Below are positions 20,340-28,525 of a stretch of 33,695 nucleotides of DNA, one piece after another. Positions within the stretch are counted from its first letter, which is position 1. Each line of letters opens with the position of its first letter. The translations under genes and the position numbers were made by a program. Source of the stretch: a virus (taxonomy: Duplodnaviria; Heunggongvirae; Uroviricota; Caudoviricetes); IMG/VR virus record IMGVR_UViG_2737471863_000001; one strand, 5' to 3'. Under the pieces are notes generated by a model. The model was not told the DNA's origin and did not search any database. It saw nothing but the letters and a program-made list of their open reading frames with translations.

Positions 20340-21903
20340 GGCCGGTGTCCCCCAGCGCACGCGCCTTAAAGCACACCTCCGCCAGTTGCAGGGCAAAGTC
20401 GTCCGCGTTCAGCGTTTCCTGAAGCTCAGGCAGGCGTTTCAGAAAGTCATCAAAACTGTCGCATTCCTGCGCCAGTGTCAGCACCGGGTTCGTGAACGCT
20501 TCGCCGGTTTTCTGCCAGTCACGCAGGGCATCATCCACCATCTGTGCCAGTTCGTCGGGGTGTTCCCGGTTCAGGGCGACGCGCTCGCGGTTCATCGCCA
20601 CATCACCTGACATTCCGGCAGACACCGGATGCAGAACATCAGCCCCGTCGTCCGGTTCAGCCAGGCCGAACCGGTCCCGCAGCTCCGATTCCTGAACCCG
20701 CATCCCCCGGTCAATCAGCGGCACCAGAGCATCTGTCAGCGCCTTCAGATCTTCCGCTTCACTGATACGCAGAACAACACGAGGATAGTGCGCCTGTGGC
20801 CCGTAGTTGGCCTCGATGTAGGGACGCACCAGATATTCATTCAGCGTGTTAGCCAGTTGCCGTGCATCCCAGCGCACAATGTCCATGCGCACCTGATTGT
20901 GCACGTCCGCCTGTGAACGCGAACTGCCGTTATCCGTGGTCATGGTCTGCCCCAGCACAGCCTTACTGATTTGCGCATCACACCATTCCGCCATTTCACG
21001 GAACAGTGCGCCGCCGTTATTCCGGCTGGCGGTTTCCTTCATCTCCAGTTGCATGGACTGCGGAATGGCACACCCGGCATCCGAGGCAATGGAGGCAATC
21101 GCATCAATCAGCACGCGGATTTGCTCCTCCGTGGCGTTGGGACCGTATTTCCCCACCGTGACCGGAATGCCAAATTTTTCCGCGAATGCCCACCAGTCGC
21201 GCACGGTAAAGGATTTCAGCATGTACATCACCGCCACCAGACGGGCCAGACCGTTACGCAACGGCAGACCGGATTTCAGGCGAGGCTGGTGAACAATGAA
21301 TTTTCCCGGTGTCAGCAGTACGCCATCCACCGGTTCGTCATCCGTCAGCAGGCGGAACTGGCGCAGCGTGGGCTTTTCGGCTTTCAGAAAACGGGGATCA
21401 ACCCACTCATAATCACGGGGCATCCAGTGGTTGTTGCGGGTGTCCCACAGGATTTCACAGACCGCCACGCCTTTTCCCAGCCCGTCGAGCAAATCAAACA
21501 TCAGTTCGGGGATTTGCGGGGCTTCCATCAGTGCACGGATGGCGTCCGCCAGTTGCACGTCAGCATCGTCATCACTGGCGGCCACCACCACCGGTTCGAT
21601 ACCCGCCACCGTCAGCTTGCGGGTGCGCAGCACCGAGGCGTAATGCAAATCGCGTTCTTCCATCTCTTCGGCAAGGATAAAAAAATCACGTGTGATGCCG
21701 TCGGCGGCATTGCGCAGAATGCCTGCCAGCCTGCCGGGGTTCAGCCCGGAGGCGATGCTGATGCCCGGCGAGGCCGAACGCACGCCAGCCTGACGCGGAC
21801 GGGCCTGTGCTTCGTTGAGCGCCTCTTTTTTCAGCGTGTCTTCCTCACCGGTTGCCGGGTTCAGCAGACGGCGAACGGCCCCGGCCAGTTGTTTCAGGTT
21901 CAC
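20332..21903 (-). CDS. portal protein (Mu H/gp29-like)
   Basis: 523 aa; starts at GTG 21903 with GAGGGAGG SD, overlapping the terminase stop (GTGA); no in-frame ATG nearby. Confidence 0.85.
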   Translation of the reverse strand: MNLKQLAGAVRRLLNPATGEEDTLKKEALNEAQARPRQAGVRSASPGISIASGLNPGRLAGILRNAADGITRDFFILAEEMEERDLHYASVLRTRKLTVAGIEPVVVAASDDDADVQLADAIRALMEAPQIPELMFDLLDGLGKGVAVCEILWDTRNNHWMPRDYEWVDPRFLKAEKPTLRQFRLLTDDEPVDGVLLTPGKFIVHQPRLKSGLPLRNGLARLVAVMYMLKSFTVRDWWAFAEKFGIPVTVGKYGPNATEEQIRVLIDAIASIASDAGCAIPQSMQLEMKETASRNNGGALFREMAEWCDAQISKAVLGQTMTTDNGSSRSQADVHNQVRMDIVRWDARQLANTLNEYLVRPYIEANYGPQAHYPRVVLRISEAEDLKALTDALVPLIDRGMRVQESELRDRFGLAEPDDGADVLHPVSAGMSGDVAMNRERVALNREHPDELAQMVDDALRDWQKTGEAFTNPVLTLAQECDSFDDFLKRLPELQETLNADDFALQLAEVCFKARALGDTGHA

Positions 21904-23435
21904 AGTAAACCTCCCTCATTTTTCAGGCCGCGTGTCAGCTTCATCTGGCGGCGCGCGTTGCGTTCTTCCGGTTTCGCCGGGCGGTTCAGGCGGTGCAGCT
22001 CGTAACGGTGGCAGTCATCCTTGCTGGCAAGGAACCCCAGGAAAATGGCCACAGCGGCGTCGCCGTGACGCTTGCGGCCATCGCTGCCTTTAGTACGGGT
22101 ATCGTCAATGCCGGGAACGCCACGCAGTAACTGAATGGCCCCGAGGTCATTGATCACGTCTTCATGCTTCGGAAGGATCAGCTCATCATCTTCAAATGCT
22201 GCACGGAAACGGGGCATGTTTTCGCGGTAGAACGCCACGGACAGCATCACCTGTTCCACTTCGTCGCCGTACCGCTCCGCCGCCTGTTCTGCCAGATACT
22301 GACCATTCCCCCGCGCATCCATTTTGATACCGTCACGACGGGGTAGACGATCGCAAATCCAGAACAGCACCTGCTCCTGCTGTTTAAACGGCACATTGCC
22401 AAGCTCAACCAGGAACGGCACCTCGCGGGTGGTGTCATCGTTCACCGTCACCGGGGCCAGTACGGTCAGGTCACCCGAACGCGCAAAGTCTTCCCCCAGA
22501 CAGTGGCGCAGGTTCTTCGGGAGTTTTTCCAGCTCGGGGCGCACCACTGTTTCCAGCCATTCCCGGATATCTGCCCGGCGCTGGCTTTCCGTCAGTGCGT
22601 TAAATTCCGGTGTGCCGGTAAAGCGCAGCACTTTTCCGGTGCCACGGGCCGCACGTTCACGCAGTGAGCGGGGAATATACGTGCCGCCGCCGTTTTTCGG
22701 GACGCAGTAATATTCCTCCAGTGCGTCTTCGCGGGTGGCGGTATTTCGCAGCAGGCCTTCTTTCCATTCCGCCTCGGCTTCCGGTGACCACACCATGCCG
22801 CGCACCTGACAGATACGCCGGTACAGCCCGTCATTGCAGGCGTCATCCAGCGTGATGGTGTGAATGCTGTAATCTTTTTTGCCCGCACGGCTTTCCTGAA
22901 TCAGCTGGTTAAACAGGTTGTCCACGCCGTCATGGGTGGAAATAAGGCGAATTTTGCCGCCCCATGTTTTCAGCGGCAGCACGGCCTTCAGCAGTTCGTC
23001 CAGTTTTTCATGGAATGCGGCTTCGTCGATGGTGACATTCCCCTGCATCCCGCGAATGTTGCTCGGGTTGCTGGACAGTGCCTTGACCTTAAAACCGCTG
23101 GCGAAGTACACGACGAACGTCAGAATGTCCTTGTCTTCGTCGGTGATCACTTCCTCGCAGATTTCTTCCGCTGCCGCATTAAACGCTTTCGCCCACATCG
23201 CCACGGCGTCGATAAATTCGCGGGCCATCTCCTTATTCGAACCGATATAAAAGTGATCGCGCCCGCCGTCTTCCTTCTTCAGCGATGCCGTCAGTGCCGC
23301 ATCTGCCGCCTCCGCCCAGGTTAAACCGGTACGGCGGGATTTCTCGGCGATTTTCAGGTCGGCATCATCCGCCACCCAGCGTTTCTGATACGGCAGCAGA
23401 ACATCATATTCACTGAACGTGTCCATTTGTGTCAT
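21900..23435 (-). CDS. terminase large subunit (Mu E/gp28-like)
   Basis: 511 aa, ATG 23435 overlapping the upstream stop (ATGA); size and position typical. Confidence 0.85.
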   Translation of the reverse strand: MTQMDTFSEYDVLLPYQKRWVADDADLKIAEKSRRTGLTWAEAADAALTASLKKEDGGRDHFYIGSNKEMAREFIDAVAMWAKAFNAAAEEICEEVITDEDKDILTFVVYFASGFKVKALSSNPSNIRGMQGNVTIDEAAFHEKLDELLKAVLPLKTWGGKIRLISTHDGVDNLFNQLIQESRAGKKDYSIHTITLDDACNDGLYRRICQVRGMVWSPEAEAEWKEGLLRNTATREDALEEYYCVPKNGGGTYIPRSLRERAARGTGKVLRFTGTPEFNALTESQRRADIREWLETVVRPELEKLPKNLRHCLGEDFARSGDLTVLAPVTVNDDTTREVPFLVELGNVPFKQQEQVLFWICDRLPRRDGIKMDARGNGQYLAEQAAERYGDEVEQVMLSVAFYRENMPRFRAAFEDDELILPKHEDVINDLGAIQLLRGVPGIDDTRTKGSDGRKRHGDAAVAIFLGFLASKDDCHRYELHRLNRPAKPEERNARRQMKLTRGLKNEGGLL

Positions 23436-24013
23436 GCGCTAATCCCCAGAATTTCACGTTTGATGGTGTCAGCCGCACCGCCTGACAGACCGCCCGTTCT
23501 GACCAGTTCTTCGGTTTTCTCTGCCATCTCCTGCGCAAACGCATCGCGGATCGCTTTCTCGCGTTTATGGCTGGTCATGGCTGCCGCTTCCAGACGCTGG
23601 GCAACCAGCGCCAGTTGCCCCAGCGCTTTCGGTGCAACTGGCTTGTCGTCTTCTGCCATCGACATGGACGTTTCAAAGGCCAGCGTTTTTACAAACTCCA
23701 TCAGCAGCTTGCCGACGTCAGACGTCGGTGCAGAACCCAGCTTTGCCGCCCAGACTTCGGCCATTTCGCGGGAGGCGCGGATTTTGGCCCCGACTTTTTC
23801 CATGCGGATGGCATAGCGGTTTAAGCCCGTCCGGCTTAACTGCATCTCTTCCGGCAGGTTATGTTCGTCAATCAGGGCGTTGATGGCTTCGCGGATTTCT
23901 TCCTGCGTGTGCCGCTTTTCCCGCAGCATCTGATGCAACTGCTCCCGGATGCTGTCCGGGAGTAAATCCACTTTGGAAAGACGGCCACGGGTGGGGCGTT
24001 GTTCATTTTCCAT
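23432..24013 (-). CDS. Mu gp27/D-like protein (putative terminase small subunit)
   Basis: Track ORF opens at GTG 24034; the first ATG at 24013 has a strong AGGAGG SD 7 nt upstream, giving 193 aa. Confidence 0.55.
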   Translation of the reverse strand: MENEQRPTRGRLSKVDLLPDSIREQLHQMLREKRHTQEEIREAINALIDEHNLPEEMQLSRTGLNRYAIRMEKVGAKIRASREMAEVWAAKLGSAPTSDVGKLLMEFVKTLAFETSMSMAEDDKPVAPKALGQLALVAQRLEAAAMTSHKREKAIRDAFAQEMAEKTEELVRTGGLSGGAADTIKREILGISA

Positions 24014-24150
24014 GTGTGCCCTCCTGTTGCTCACTACGCTGTAAACTTTCGTATGCAGATTTCAGTGCGCCGCTCTGGATTTCCCGCCATGTCAGGTTGT
24101 GCGCCAGACGGCGGAGTTCATCACGGGACGCTTTACTTATCGGATTCTTT

Positions 24151-24450
24151 TTACGGTTCACGACGGCCCCCGTCTTCAGTTCCCGGTGTTTTCAGACCGG
24201 CGTATATTTCTTCGCGAACGGAGCGGATATCCTTACCCAGCAGCTTCCACAGCCGCGCACATGCCGGTGATGAACGCAGGGCACGTTTCATGGGGGTATC
24301 CGGTGCATCCGGGTTCCAGGGCTTTCCGGTCTGTTGTTCGTATGCACAGGCAATGGCCTTTTGCTCAATATCTGCCAGCACAAGGCAGTACGCCAGCTGC
24401 CGCACGACGGCCCGTTCTCCGCGACTTAACGGCTTCAGTTTTCGGGCCAT
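24151..24450 (-). CDS. hypothetical protein (lysis-head junction)
   Basis: 99 aa, ATG 24450 with GAGGGA SD; no family recognised. Confidence 0.4.
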   Translation of the reverse strand: MARKLKPLSRGERAVVRQLAYCLVLADIEQKAIACAYEQQTGKPWNPDAPDTPMKRALRSSPACARLWKLLGKDIRSVREEIYAGLKTPGTEDGGRREP

Positions 24451-24452
24451 GC

Positions 24453-24746
24453 TCAGTCCCTCGCACGGGGTTTTTTAACGCCCGGAACGCTGGACTGGCC
24501 GTTTGCCACATCCTCGCCGCTGCCGGTGATTTCAGCCACGTAACAGCCGCCCACATCAGACAGACGAACCAGCCCCTGCTCGCGAAGCCATGCAAGCTGG
24601 GTGCGCACCACATCACGGGATACCTTATGACCGTAAGCCTGAAGGCAGGTCTGCAACACGGATTCATTCGCGCTGTCGCCACAGTCCAGCAGGGAACGCA
24701 GCAACACCAGACGACGGTCTTCAGTGAGGATCTCTTTCATCGCCAT
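24453..24746 (-). CDS. hypothetical protein, possible winged-helix fold
   Basis: 97 aa, ATG 24746 overlapping the upstream stop (TAATG). Confidence 0.4.
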   Translation of the reverse strand: MAMKEILTEDRRLVLLRSLLDCGDSANESVLQTCLQAYGHKVSRDVVRTQLAWLREQGLVRLSDVGGCYVAEITGSGEDVANGQSSVPGVKKPRARD

Positions 24747-25051
24747 TAATTTTTTTCCTTTAACTCGTTCTCTAATAACAAATCACTGATGCGGGATACC
24801 TGGCGGATGGATGGCCCCAGCTCTTTGATTTCTCCCCGCAGGTTGCTGATATCCAGTTGCAGACGGTGGAACTCATCACGATCAGGTAGCTGATGTACCT
24901 GGCTTTCCATCACCGACACGCGGGAACGCAACAAATCAAACTCTTCGCGTTTGACGTACGTCTTCGCCAGAATCAACTGAAGCAGGTTTATTGCTGTCAT
25001 TAACAGCGCCCACAGAATGGGCCAGTTGGCTCTAATCATTTCCCAGGACAC
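24746..25051 (-). CDS. membrane-anchored coiled-coil protein, lysis accessory (spanin/releasin-like)
   Basis: Hydrophobic N-terminus WPILWALLMTAINLLQLILA then a charged helical region; start GTG 25051 (AGGAGG SD) or ATG 25039 (ATGA coupling). Confidence 0.45.
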   Translation of the reverse strand: MSWEMIRANWPILWALLMTAINLLQLILAKTYVKREEFDLLRSRVSVMESQVHQLPDRDEFHRLQLDISNLRGEIKELGPSIRQVSRISDLLLENELKEKN

Positions 25052-25263
25052 GTCTTCCTCCTGCGTTCCCGCATCTGCTGACAGTCAATACAGGTCACCA
25101 CATCCGGCAGCGCCGCAAGGCGCTGTACCGGAATAACGTTCCCGCAGTCATTGCAGAAGCCCCGACTGTGGGGCGCTTCTTTTGTCCGTATCTGCCAGGC
25201 TTTAACGACGCTCTGACGCTCGTTCAGAACCACTTCACTGATGCGGTCGATTTCGTCGGTCAT
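25036..25263 (-). CDS. TraR/DksA-family C4 zinc-finger protein
   Basis: 75 aa, ATG 25263 (ATGA overlap); CNDCGNVIP...VTCIDCQQ spacing matches the TraR/DksA zinc finger. Confidence 0.6.
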   Translation of the reverse strand: MTDEIDRISEVVLNERQSVVKAWQIRTKEAPHSRGFCNDCGNVIPVQRLAALPDVVTCIDCQQMRERRRKTCPGK

Positions 25264-25868
25264 TTCGGCCCCGCAGATATTTTGTGACGGCTTGATTTGC
25301 TGTAACGGGCAAAGCCGTCAAGGGTTCGCACGCCGAGATAGCCCAGCGCAGGGGTAAGCAACATCAGCGTGATATCCCAGTCCGGTGATGGCATATGCAG
25401 CGTGATACCTCTGGCACCGGCAATGGCTCCGGCAATCTGGCCGCAGGAAAGCAACAGCACATAGGCAAGACTGCTGTAACAGGACAGGCGGGCCAGCAAC
25501 GGGCGCGTCTGGCGCACATAGCTGTCCGTGGCGTTGTCACCATTGCGGATGGTTTCCTGCTGTTCGTGGTGTGCGGCCTGCTGATCAGCCAGCACCAGCT
25601 TCTGCCGTTCCACCTCCAGTTGTTGCAACTGAATTTTCAGGGTTTCCAGCTGCATCAGTTGCTCCGGTGACAGCATCACCAGTTTTTGTTCCAGAATGCG
25701 TTGCTGTTCAGCCACCGGCAGGCTTTCCCGGACACTTTCCACCATACCGGCCACCGAGTCAGCGGCGGCAGATGTGCTGCCACCAAACCAGCGCCCGACG
25801 GAACGAATCAGCCCCGGCCCGGCTTTCAGCAGAACAGAGGCGATGCCTGAAAGGGTTAACGGATCCAT
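25260..25868 (-). CDS. membrane protein with central coiled-coil and C-terminal hydrophobic segments (holin/lysis candidate)
   Basis: 202 aa, ATG 25868 with AGGGGGA SD; Gln/Leu-rich helix, then hydrophobic LAYVLLLSCGQIAGAIAGA and ITLMLLTPALGYLGV. Confidence 0.4.
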   Translation of the reverse strand: MDPLTLSGIASVLLKAGPGLIRSVGRWFGGSTSAAADSVAGMVESVRESLPVAEQQRILEQKLVMLSPEQLMQLETLKIQLQQLEVERQKLVLADQQAAHHEQQETIRNGDNATDSYVRQTRPLLARLSCYSSLAYVLLLSCGQIAGAIAGARGITLHMPSPDWDITLMLLTPALGYLGVRTLDGFARYSKSSRHKISAGPK

Positions 25869-26266
25869 GAATCCCCCTTATGAAAACGGCGCTGATGTTT
25901 ATAAAGTGCCGCGCAAAAAATACCGCCCAGCCAGAACGCCAGCTGATAAGGCTCCTTCAGATAAAGAATGCCGAATGTCAGCATGAAAAAACCAACGGCC
26001 CAGACCACCCATGACCACACGACAATTCGAAGGGAAGCGGCCCGGAAACGCCTTTTGGGTTGCAGGCGATAAGGTACGTTGCCCAGCTGGAAACTGTGAA
26101 TCAGACAGAGTGTCGCGCCGTATGCCAGCACCATGACCGCAAACGCCCGCCATCCGGCAAAACAGCTCGCCAGAAAAAGGACTGCCGACAGCCCCAGAAA
26201 CGACCACTGGCACAACATAAAGCGGGAGCAAATAACGCGAACAAAAAGACTATTCATTCTGTGCAT
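25856..26266 (-). CDS. small membrane protein with about four predicted TM helices (holin candidate)
   Basis: Start taken at internal ATG 26266 (AAGGAAA SD), about 136 aa; the 5' part of the track ORF overlaps the preceding gene and lacks an SD. Confidence 0.4.
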   Translation of the reverse strand: MHRMNSLFVRVICSRFMLCQWSFLGLSAVLFLASCFAGWRAFAVMVLAYGATLCLIHSFQLGNVPYRLQPKRRFRAASLRIVVWSWVVWAVGFFMLTFGILYLKEPYQLAFWLGGIFCAALYKHQRRFHKGDSWIR

Positions 26267-26477
26267 TGAGTTTTTCCTTGTACTTCTGGCACTGCCAGAA
26301 AATGTCCCGTGTATCCACGGCGTTCCAGCCACGCATGTAGTAGCTGGCGTGTGTGCCGTCATGGCCGGTATAGTCCAGCGGTTTCGGGGGCGGACCTCCG
26401 GCCATGCGGTGCAGAACCTCCTGACGCAGGCGGTCACGCCGCCCGGCTTTCAGTGAGGCATCCCAGCCTTTGCCCAT
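26250..26477 (-). CDS. hypothetical 75-aa protein directly after the endolysin
   Basis: ATG 26477 two nt after the lys stop, with GGGGGTGA SD; soluble, no family recognised. Confidence 0.35.
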   Translation of the reverse strand: MGKGWDASLKAGRRDRLRQEVLHRMAGGPPPKPLDYTGHDGTHASYYMRGWNAVDTRDIFWQCQKYKEKLNAQNE

Positions 26478-26478
26478 A

Positions 26479-27075
26479 TCACCCCCGCGTGGCGGACATG
26501 ATGCCCAGAGGGGTATCGATGATTTCCAGACAGGCGTCGGTCAGCTTTTCCATGCGGTTAAACCAGCCGTTCAGGTATTTGCCCTGGGCGGGTTTTGATT
26601 TGATGATGTCGGCATAAAAGCGGGAGCGACGGACAATACAGCGGGCCAGCAGCCAGTCAGGGGTGGACTGGCTCACGGCCTTGCGGGTACGCGGCCCGAT
26701 GATGCCGTCAGCATCCACATCAGCGGCTTCCTGCAAAAGTTTGATAGCCTTTTTAACGCCATGCTGAACCGCCGCATCAAACACAAAAAGCGCCACGCCA
26801 TCAGGCCACTGGTCACATCCGGCAGGCAGCCAGTAATCACGCAGGTAAATCTGTGCGGCCTGTTCGCGGGTTAAATCTTTGATGCGGGTATCCGGTTTAC
26901 CGTCACCGTTGACATCGGTTTTGCCGTCAATCACACCGTCGCGGCGGTCAGAAATGCCGTATTTGGTTTCGCCGCCACGGTCAGTGGAGTCATTGACATA
27001 GACGCCTTCGATATCGGGACGCAGAATGAAATTCAGCGCATGCTCAAAGGCCGGGGAGAATTTTTGATTTTCCAT
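26479..27075 (-). CDS. endolysin: GH108-type lysozyme domain with C-terminal peptidoglycan-binding domain, no N-terminal SAR/TM segment
   Basis: 198 aa, ATG 27075; hallmark IEGVYVNDSTDRGGETKYGIS of the GH108 family; no hydrophobic N-terminus. Confidence 0.8.
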   Translation of the reverse strand: MENQKFSPAFEHALNFILRPDIEGVYVNDSTDRGGETKYGISDRRDGVIDGKTDVNGDGKPDTRIKDLTREQAAQIYLRDYWLPAGCDQWPDGVALFVFDAAVQHGVKKAIKLLQEAADVDADGIIGPRTRKAVSQSTPDWLLARCIVRRSRFYADIIKSKPAQGKYLNGWFNRMEKLTDACLEIIDTPLGIMSATRG

Positions 27076-27130
27076 AAAAACACCTGTGAAGCAGAGTTAA
27101 ACGTGGTCTGCTTCATGGTGCCGGAGGCAT

Positions 27131-27156
27131 AAAAAAAGCCGGATTTACCGGCTTCA
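27131..27156 (-). terminator. rho-independent terminator between the Mor/C gene and lys
   Basis: Same 26-nt element as 19411-19436; begins 5 nt after the Mor/C stop (27161). Confidence 0.55.
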
Positions 27157-27160
27157 TTGA

Positions 27161-27610
27161 TTAAGGGCGTCGTGGCGGACGACGAACGGGGTGAGGCAGG
27201 TTCGGGGAGGGGTAAAACAAATCCGGCTGGTATTTATTGCGCTCCAGACGTCGCATCCGTTTGATGGCCTTGTAGACGGTTTTATACGTCACTCCGTAAC
27301 GCTGAACCAGTTCAGGAATATTATGGCCGTTAAAATCACGCCAGATACGCATATCCCGGACAAGATTCTCCAGAATATTCCCCCTCGGAACATAAACCTG
27401 CATCCCGCCGATATGGCGACAAATCGCCACAACCAGCTCAAGGGAATGAGCAGGGTCTGCGCCAATCCGGGCCAGCTCTTTACGCAGCAGTGCGTTCAGT
27501 TCAGAAAGTAACGCCGGATAAGCGGTGTTTTCCTGGTAATCATGAAGATATTCCAGAACGCTGTCGTCCCGGAGGTCTTCGAATAAATCCTGCTCTTTCA
27601 TCTGTTTCAT
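27161..27610 (-). CDS. Mor/C-family transcription activator (cannot say whether Mor or C orthologue)
   Basis: 149 aa, ATG 27610 overlapping the gemA stop (ATGA); N-terminal acidic region and C-terminal HTH VYKAIKRMRRLE; sits between gemA and lys. Confidence 0.7.
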   Translation of the reverse strand: MKQMKEQDLFEDLRDDSVLEYLHDYQENTAYPALLSELNALLRKELARIGADPAHSLELVVAICRHIGGMQVYVPRGNILENLVRDMRIWRDFNGHNIPELVQRYGVTYKTVYKAIKRMRRLERNKYQPDLFYPSPNLPHPVRRPPRRP

Positions 27611-28158
27611 ACAGCAATTCTCCCGCTGTTTCGTGCGCGGGCATACGCACTGGTCAGTGCATCATAGCCGCGCAGTTCCCGCCCGGATGGGCTTACAGGT
27701 AAAGGCACACCATGTCGGGCAAAGGCTTCACGGATGCAGCGCATGTGCCACTGTTTGAGCGTTTCGAGCACAACCTGCAACGATTCCCCGTGACACCATG
27801 CCAGCGTGGAAACACCCTGACCGCCATTACGTCTGGCCGTCAGGCGTTCAACGTATTTGTCCAGCGCGGCGTCGCTGATATCGGATACGAAACCATCAAG
27901 AAACATCTGCTGCCAGATTTTATAAATCTTCTCGCGCGGTGTGACATGCCCCTTAAAGCGACGGCGGGGATGTTTATTCTGCTTTTTAAAACCGCGCTCT
28001 TTCATGGCATCGAGCACTTGTTCCAGTTGTGCAACGGACAGCTCGCGGCAACTGGTTTTGCCCGTGCACTGCACCAGAAAGGCGCGGTAAGTGTCATCGT
28101 CGAGGTGCAACTCCCGGCGGGCAACATGAATTAATTTAATCAGGGATGTGCGACTCAT
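27607..28158 (-). CDS. gemA: GemA-like protein (Mu gp16 family)
   Basis: Start taken at ATG 28158 (AAGGAGA SD), 183 aa; N-terminus MSRTSLIKLIHVARRELHLDDDTYRAF is characteristic of the gp16/GemA family. Confidence 0.6.
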   Translation of the reverse strand: MSRTSLIKLIHVARRELHLDDDTYRAFLVQCTGKTSCRELSVAQLEQVLDAMKERGFKKQNKHPRRRFKGHVTPREKIYKIWQQMFLDGFVSDISDAALDKYVERLTARRNGGQGVSTLAWCHGESLQVVLETLKQWHMRCIREAFARHGVPLPVSPSGRELRGYDALTSAYARARNSGRIAV

Positions 28159-28525
28159 TTTGCCCCATCTCCTTAATGCAGTGTTTTTCGACCCATGCCA
28201 CACGAGCAGAATTCAGGTGGCATCTGTCATGCAGGCATTCATCATGGTAGTGCACGTTATCTACATTAAATGGCAGGGATTCATCCAGCCCACTCGCGAC
28301 AAAATCCGCATGTAATTGTTCTAGCGCAGCCTCGCTGTCTGCTCCGATTGATTCAAAATAGTCATAAACATTGGCGCATAATCCGACTCCCCGAATAAAC
28401 CCTTCCCCTTCCGTTTCTTGCGCTCCGTTTTTTAACCACTGGTTATAGGCGACATAAAAATCATAAAGATGTTTTCTGGTGCTGGCGGATGCGGATTTAA
28501 TTTCATTTTTCTCTGCGTTATTCAT
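28136..28525 (-). CDS. hypothetical early-region protein
   Basis: 129 aa, ATG 28525; acidic, Cys/His-containing C-terminus; no family recognised. Confidence 0.4.
   Translation of the reverse strand: MNNAEKNEIKSASASTRKHLYDFYVAYNQWLKNGAQETEGEGFIRGVGLCANVYDYFESIGADSEAALEQLHADFVASGLDESLPFNVDNVHYHDECLHDRCHLNSARVAWVEKHCIKEMGQNESHIPD

Follow-up and report, generated by a model that had tools for sequence, protein, structure and literature searches.

A TraR-family zinc-finger protein encoded between the lysis and packaging genes of a Mu-like prophage

The window, the whole 33,695-nucleotide stretch of viral DNA that was analysed, is a Mu-like prophage, approximately 97% identical to prophages in Escherichia coli chromosomes. 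The region around the gene studied here, which encodes a 75-aa zinc-finger protein, shares 97.7% identity with a Mu-like prophage in the chromosome of E. coli PSS-15 and is matched in 49 of 5,426 complete E. coli genomes. The PSS-15 prophage is complete, extending from repressor and transposase genes through to com and mom. Located at about 496.4–530.4 kb of NZ_AP027709, it splits a FUSC-family gene into two annotated partial pieces, an interruption consistent with insertion into a chromosomal gene by Mu-type transposition.

From 21900 to 28203 every gene is on the minus strand, and the gene order is that of a Mu-like lysis–packaging block preceded by a Mor/C activator and an endolysin. Starting from the upstream end, a gp16/GemA-like gene (27607–28203) leads into a Mor/C-family transcription activator (27161–27610; Pfam Mor, E = 3.6e-30), with a terminator-like hairpin and T-run directly on its 3′ side (27135–27155). 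The endolysin (26479–27075) has GH108 and PG_binding_3 domains by Pfam and is soluble by hydropathy, with no hydrophobic window that would indicate a transmembrane or SAR segment. It is followed by a 75-aa protein that iterated search connects with Mu gp18 (E18) (26250–26477), a 136-aa multi-pass membrane protein of PHROG 12596 (25856–26266) and a 202-aa membrane protein of PHROG 1544 with C-terminal hydrophobic segments (25260–25868; E = 8e-59), possibly holin-like. Then comes the zinc-finger gene (25036–25263), and after it a 101-aa DUF2730 gene (24746–25051; PF10805, E = 1.1e-30), whose product has, by hydropathy, a transmembrane segment at its N terminus and a coiled part in the cytoplasm. 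The block closes with a Mu gp26-like gene of the VpaChn25_0724 family (24453–24746), a Mu gp27-type small terminase (23432–24034; PF11985, E = 1.8e-54) and a Mu gp28-type large terminase (21900–23435). The gp26-like gene and the small terminase are separated by two small genes (24003–24450), one of 99 aa (PHROG 8988) and one of 52 aa; only some of the related loci have the 99-aa gene.

An earlier note on this DNA, made from sequence alone, had placed the zinc-finger gene between membrane lysis proteins, a description that holds better on one side than on the other. Both flanking proteins have hydrophobic, transmembrane-like segments, and iterated search ties the DUF2730 gene to Mu gp25, the releasin, which is a lysis protein (PMC9239132). 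On the upstream side, four of the six members of the uncharacterised 202-aa family weakly match Pfam GTA_holin_3TM, all of them under the cutoff. The gp18 relative and the 202-aa protein match the N-terminal and C-terminal parts, respectively, of PHROG 2121 (284 aa), and may thus be a single protein in some phages; in the window they are separated by the 136-aa gene, whose product has a lipobox-like LASC at residues 32–35. Mu gp18 itself is a middle-operon gene in Mu. No Rz/Rz1-type spanin pair was recognised in the cassette at 25856–27075. The endolysin is soluble, with neither a membrane nor a SAR segment, yet is paired with a gene of the DUF2730 ‘releasin’ family.

The translational coupling proposed by the same note is visible in the sequence at both ends of the zinc-finger gene. 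At its 5′ end, an ATGA (25260–25263) combines the TGA stop of the 202-aa gene with the ATG start of the zinc-finger gene. At its 3′ end, the region shared with DUF2730 (25036–25062) contains an AGGAGG Shine–Dalgarno sequence (25057–25062) and the DUF2730 GTG start (25049–25051), giving a 16-nt coding overlap; PGAP picks the same GTG start.

The endolysin-to-terminase genes overlap or abut, and no sigma-70-like promoter was found on the coding strand from the endolysin to the terminase. Between the hairpin with its T-run and the endolysin lies a gap of 60 nt, in the same layout as is found 3′ of gene C in Mu, and this gap presumably holds the candidate promoter of the lysis–packaging operon. 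Mu has two activators, Mor and C; the window prophage has one, located between the gp16/GemA-like gene and the endolysin. A single Mor-family gene is matched in the window and a single one is annotated in the PSS-15 prophage, so the lysis–packaging operon is probably switched on directly by that activator. The presence of just one activator suggests a two-step instead of a three-step transcription cascade. From the gene order and by analogy with Mu Plys (PMC9239132), we infer that the operon containing the zinc-finger gene is expressed late. A search of both strands for RNA elements returned a sole match, a sub-threshold sroD on the terminator hairpin. A GC-rich hairpin with a perfect 6-bp stem, GCCCCG-ACTG-TGGGGC on the plus strand (25159–25174), falls in zinc-finger linker codons 31–36; it is probably there by chance, since the linker residues differ between alleles. 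We took this terminator-like hairpin, together with weak ones within the membrane-protein genes, as chance matches.

The zinc-finger open reading frame starts with ATG, stops with TGA and encodes 75 aa beginning MTDEIDRISE, with cysteines in CNDCG and CIDCQ. The ATG is the earliest usable start 3′ of an in-frame stop, which makes an N-terminal extension impossible. The cysteines are spaced C37xxC40-x17-C58xxC61, in the numbering of F TraR, bearing out the paired CxxC pattern first noticed in this protein. An AlphaFold2 model (mean pLDDT 79), built from an alignment of 78 homologues from which the TraR and Orf73 rows were left out, predicts two helices, at residues 4–27 and 59–71, with a zinc ribbon between them. 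The predicted N-terminal helix (25183–25254) is the counterpart of the TraR helix that occupies the RNA polymerase secondary channel, and at its tip is D3-x-x-D6-x-I8, with D3 (25255–25257) just beyond the helix. The zinc-binding globular part (25081–25155) runs from C37xxC40 through R48 to C58xxC61. The predicted C-terminal helix (25051–25089), bearing Q62 and E66, is the counterpart of the TraR helix that contacts the beta lobe–Si1. This arrangement resembles that of TraR, with its N-helix at residues 2–27, globule at 28–57 and C-helix at 58–73 (PMC6970531), and the single N-terminal helix of the 75-aa protein leaves no DksA-style coiled coil.

By profile, sequence and fold searches, the protein is a true member of the TraR family, of the short TraR type. 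It matches PF01258 (zf-dksA_traR) at 42.3 bits against a cutoff of 24.9 (E = 7.5e-11; Pfam) and PHROG 54, ‘DksA-like zinc-finger protein’, at E = 1.2e-19, and it passes the NCBIfam TraR-family model TIGR02419 narrowly, by 0.7 bits (60.4 against a cutoff of 59.7). It scores 30.5 against a cutoff of 108 for the F TraR equivalog model, and the DksA equivalog cutoff is also far from reached; it is therefore a family member that is orthologous to neither. The best sequence relative in the PDB is TraR (5w1s_M; E = 1.5e-6, residues 2–70), with DksA next, and alignment with F TraR gives 36% identity over 72 residues, end to end, with D3, D6, the four cysteines and R48 in the same numbering. In a Foldseek search of the model against the PDB, TraR in RNA polymerase complexes ranks first with probability 1.00; the TraR/DksA family accounts for all of ranks 1–11 (E ≤ 0.05) and also for the weaker match at rank 12 (E of about 1). 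The TraR/DksA assignment in the earlier note is thus upheld by the profile search that it called for. The rival assignment to an unrelated zinc-ribbon family was also looked at: Pfam DZR reaches 20.1 bits, below its cutoff, and was rejected. The identification is already known, as the gene is named in RefSeq (PGAP calls it ‘TraR/DksA C4-type zinc finger protein’ at the E. coli PSS-15 locus) and in PHROGs, and the gene arrangement is visible in published Mu-like genomes.

The residues that matter in TraR are kept in part. The 78 homologues come from an exhaustive representative search, an ordinary homologue search having reached no further than close relatives in E. coli and Shigella. Among them, C37, C40, R48, C58 and C61 are invariant; in TraR, R48 contacts the beta′ rim helices. 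D3 is found in 75 of the 78 and D6 in 77, and the window protein keeps both (MTDEIDRI). It also has Q62 and E66, present in 71 and 76 of the 78, respectively, and the near-invariant I44. The Ala of the DxxDxA motif is not kept. Position 8 is Ile in the window protein, as opposed to Ala in 65 homologues, with Ile or Val in 9. Mu-like loci yielded 59 distinct zinc fingers; the motif is perfect in 38 of these and most of the others retain D6-x-A8, the Ile being restricted to the E. coli clade. P43 of TraR, whose substitution by Ala weakens binding to RNA polymerase (PMC6970531), is Val in the window protein. The TraR triad E46/R49/K50, which lies at the beta′Si3 interface and contributes to activation (PMC6970531), is replaced by V46/L49/A50; position 49 is Leu in 44 and Arg in 20 of the 78 homologues. 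Ala substitutions at the TraR–Si3 interface give IC50 values of 30–115 nM, compared with about 50 nM for wild type, and lower activation about two-fold (PMC6970531).

The gene is under purifying selection. Over codons 1–70, the pooled pN/pS is 0.29 for 12 distinct alleles from IMG/VR prophages, with no frameshifts or stop codons seen among them. Residues 1–4, residues 6–12 and every zinc ligand are unchanged across the 12 alleles, D3 and D6 being invariant, and the bulk of the substitutions fall in the linker that joins the N-helix to the zinc ribbon.

The position of the gene within a lysis operon, which the earlier note had called unexpected, is not peculiar to this locus. We gathered 80 related IMG/VR loci by large-terminase alignment, 66 of which have sufficient upstream sequence. 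The order zinc finger, DUF2730, gp26-like gene, small terminase, large terminase is found in 54 of these 66; 7 have DUF2730 without the zinc finger, those inspected bearing spanin-like genes instead, and 5 have neither. A megablast search of the 3.7-kb region against isolated phages gave no match, and relatives were reached only by tblastn. In all 14 records of isolated phages whose DUF2730 is similar, namely those of Klebsiella phage Kp4866-3, the Vibrio martha group, Shewanella MuM16-2 and Vibrio ZX4290, the zinc finger lies directly upstream of DUF2730. A scan of species-representative genomes with a narrower zinc-finger alignment turned up the block in several prophages of gamma- and betaproteobacteria; the hosts are Ferrimonas, Rheinheimera, Arsukibacterium, Azonexus, Accumulibacter and an unclassified proteobacterial metagenome-assembled genome. 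The gene table of Burkholderia phage KS10, published in 2008, lists a holin, an endolysin, a hypothetical gene, a dksA/traR zinc finger, a hypothetical gene, and the small and large terminases (PMC2628397); the flanks of the zinc finger are listed only as hypothetical, and no DUF2730 was identified there.

The association is strict in one direction. At all 62 Mu-like loci that have the zinc finger, it stands directly before DUF2730, with −26 to +11 nt between the two genes (−4 or −1 in most cases), and DUF2730 is found without the zinc finger at 9 of 71 related loci. In three further prophages of betaproteobacterial type, a protein that is not detectably DUF2730 but is of similar build, with an N-terminal membrane segment and a charged coiled region, takes its place (L034 5620–6280, L047 5210–5550 and L069 5210–5560); L034 has a lipoprotein-like gene inserted before it. 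No C4 open reading frame was found in the corresponding region of D3112, B3 or BcepMu, and in B3 and BcepMu a membrane protein or lipoprotein occupies the DUF2730 position. A zinc finger between the lysis and packaging genes is the usual arrangement in this Mu-like group and is not universal in transposable phages.

Taken with what is known of TraR, these features make it likely that the product of the window gene is a TraR-type factor, one that binds RNA polymerase but not DNA and inhibits host promoters late in infection. That phage homologues of TraR can reprogram host transcription, as the earlier note stated, is supported by published work (PMC9239242). The single Mor/C-type activator would turn on the operon, so that production of the zinc-finger protein coincides with that of the lysis and packaging proteins. 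The N-terminal helix of the zinc-finger protein would enter the secondary channel of the host sigma-70 RNA polymerase and, as for TraR and lambda Orf73, the protein would inhibit promoters with short-lived open complexes, those of rRNA and ribosomal proteins, with no need for ppGpp. Such inhibition would free polymerase and other resources for late phage transcription and raise phage yield. Considering A8I, V46/L49/A50, the activity of P2 Orf82 and the Ala-substitution data, we expect from the residues present that inhibition is retained, probably at somewhat lower potency, and that Si3-dependent activation is weaker than in F TraR. What the phage would gain from late expression is a conjecture, as the characterised homologues of known context are early or regulatory genes. 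Also weighing against this account are the Ile at position 8, the Val in place of P43, the replaced Si3 triad and the 0.7-bit margin at TIGR02419. A role directed purely at RNA polymerase leaves the strict coupling to DUF2730 unexplained.

That coupling is the starting point for a different account, in which the protein is mainly a partner of the DUF2730 protein, of the holin-like 202-aa protein or of both, and controls lysis timing or endolysin release, its binding to RNA polymerase being secondary or lost. The 62 of 62 pairing, usually with overlap, the lysis function of Mu gp25 (PMC9239132) and the three prophages that put an unrelated protein of similar build in the DUF2730 place all speak for it, as does the VP882 TraR, which forms a complex with QisA, the product of the adjacent gene (bioRxiv 10.64898/2026.07.27.740977). 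The VP882 complex itself, however, works via binding to RNA polymerase (same source), and the acidic tip at the extreme N terminus and R48 make sense only for the RNA polymerase secondary channel. DUF2730 does not need the zinc finger, given the 9 of 71 loci without it; B3 and BcepMu have a membrane protein or lipoprotein there, yet no zinc finger; and in phage late regions, conservation of gene order alone does not mean that the products interact physically. We regard this partner role as improbable. A role aimed mainly at phage promoters, in which the protein boosts or balances the Mor/C-dependent late promoters of head, tail and mom genes in a feed-forward manner, as TraR does for F transfer promoters, is unlikely. 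The zinc finger is the first regulatory-type gene of an operon under a single Mor/C activator, the KS10 authors speculate that their zinc finger controls the transcription of head genes (PMC2628397), and TraR raises transcription from F promoters in vitro (PMC9239242), but E46, R49 and K50, the residues for activation through beta′Si3, are not kept in the window protein.

That the gene is a remnant in decay or without function, or that it encodes an unrelated zinc ribbon with no more than a resemblance to TraR, is very hard to reconcile with the data. The replacement of A8 would fit decay, and in Mu the gene at the same position, gp24, keeps just the cysteine spacing, with D6, R48 and the C-terminal helix gone. 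Against this, the window gene has a pN/pS of 0.29 with its key residues invariant, its product matches TraR over the full length in sequence and in fold, and the curated cutoffs of both family models, PF01258 and TIGR02419, are exceeded. A further thought, prompted by the strict pairing of 62 of 62 zinc fingers with a following DUF2730, mostly through overlapping codons, is that the TraR-type protein has become a fixed part of the DUF2730/gp26/terminase block and, like VP882 TraR with QisA, works alongside a partner encoded next to it. It might then make the timing of endolysin release depend on the state of host RNA polymerase, or clear transcribing polymerase from integrated phage copies in the chromosome for headful packaging; we offer this as a speculation of low probability. 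Late inhibition of host promoters by a TraR-type factor is the reading that we prefer. Whichever role applies, the Mu-like loci define a large, conserved subgroup of TraR homologues in the lysis–packaging operon of transposable phages, translationally coupled to a releasin-family gene. If these homologues act like lambda Orf73, ppGpp-independent shutoff of the host would extend to late infection. The natural A8I and Si3-triad variants could separate the TraR contacts needed for inhibition from those needed for activation.

Among known proteins, DksA of E. coli (1TJL) is similar to the window protein in its zinc globule and C-terminal helix, which align at E = 8e-6, and in the ‘RL’ after the conserved Arg. 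As opposed to the single TraR-type N-terminal helix of the window protein, DksA, at 151 aa, has a coiled coil with a DxxDxA tip and needs ppGpp. F TraR (5W1S, 6N57) is closer in size, with 73 aa compared with 75. The two proteins have D3, D6, C37, C40, R48, C58, C61, Q62 and E66 at the same positions and, according to the model, the same helix–zinc globule–helix build. Unlike F TraR, the window protein has I8, V43 and V/L/A in place of E46/R49/K50, and whereas the F TraR gene belongs to a conjugation operon, the window gene belongs to a phage lysis–packaging operon.

The Mu-like relatives share the placement of the window gene. In martha 12B12 (VPCG_00028), MuM16-2 (p23) and ZX4290 the order is as in the window, with a membrane protein, the zinc finger, DUF2730, a gp26-like gene, and the small and large terminases, and KS10 gp7 also lies between endolysin and terminase genes. 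These zinc fingers have 33–47% identity to the window protein. In the Vibrio and Shewanella proteins the tail after the last cysteine is 6–9 residues long, compared with 14 in the window protein, and DxxDxA is perfect or near-perfect. Mu itself has gp24 (Mup24), a 64-aa protein encoded directly before gp25 (DUF2730) and with the same CxxC-x17-CxxC spacing; it lacks the D6, R48 and C-terminal helix of the window protein. Its gene (L001 3025–3219, corresponding to NC_000929 11524–11718) is annotated as hypothetical, encodes the N terminus MNEDQNRA and is not mentioned in the Mu lysis paper (PMC9239132). Mu gp24 matches the family weakly, at 10.6 bits by hmmsearch and 57% probability by hhalign, values at which we rejected a clear TraR homology as unproven; as a lead from sequence, it is probably a degenerate TraR relative. 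In the searchable literature we found no experiment on any Mu-like TraR homologue.

The phage homologues shown to bind RNA polymerase are lambda Orf73, P2 Orf82, VP882 Orf61, VHML Orf8 and Xenorhabdus bovienii Gp34 (PMC9239242). All five and the window protein are of the short TraR type and come from temperate phages of gammaproteobacteria. Departures from the DxxDxA motif similar to those at Mu-like loci are present among them: P2 Orf82 is without A8, as is the window protein, and Gp34 is without D3, as are some Mu-context relatives. P2 Orf82 nevertheless binds RNA polymerase, inhibits rrnB P1 with a five-fold higher IC50 (250 nM compared with 50 nM) and complements a dksA-null strain, and lambda Orf73 raises phage yield 3- to 4-fold (PMC9239242). 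All six tested family members inhibit host rRNA and ribosomal-protein promoters (PMC9239242), and none of them comes from a late operon. Placement, although ordinary among Mu-like loci, thus does set the window gene apart from the five biochemically tested phage homologues: where their context is known, they lie in early, regulatory or lysis–lysogeny regions (PMC9239242), whereas the window gene follows the endolysin, overlaps DUF2730 and precedes the terminase.
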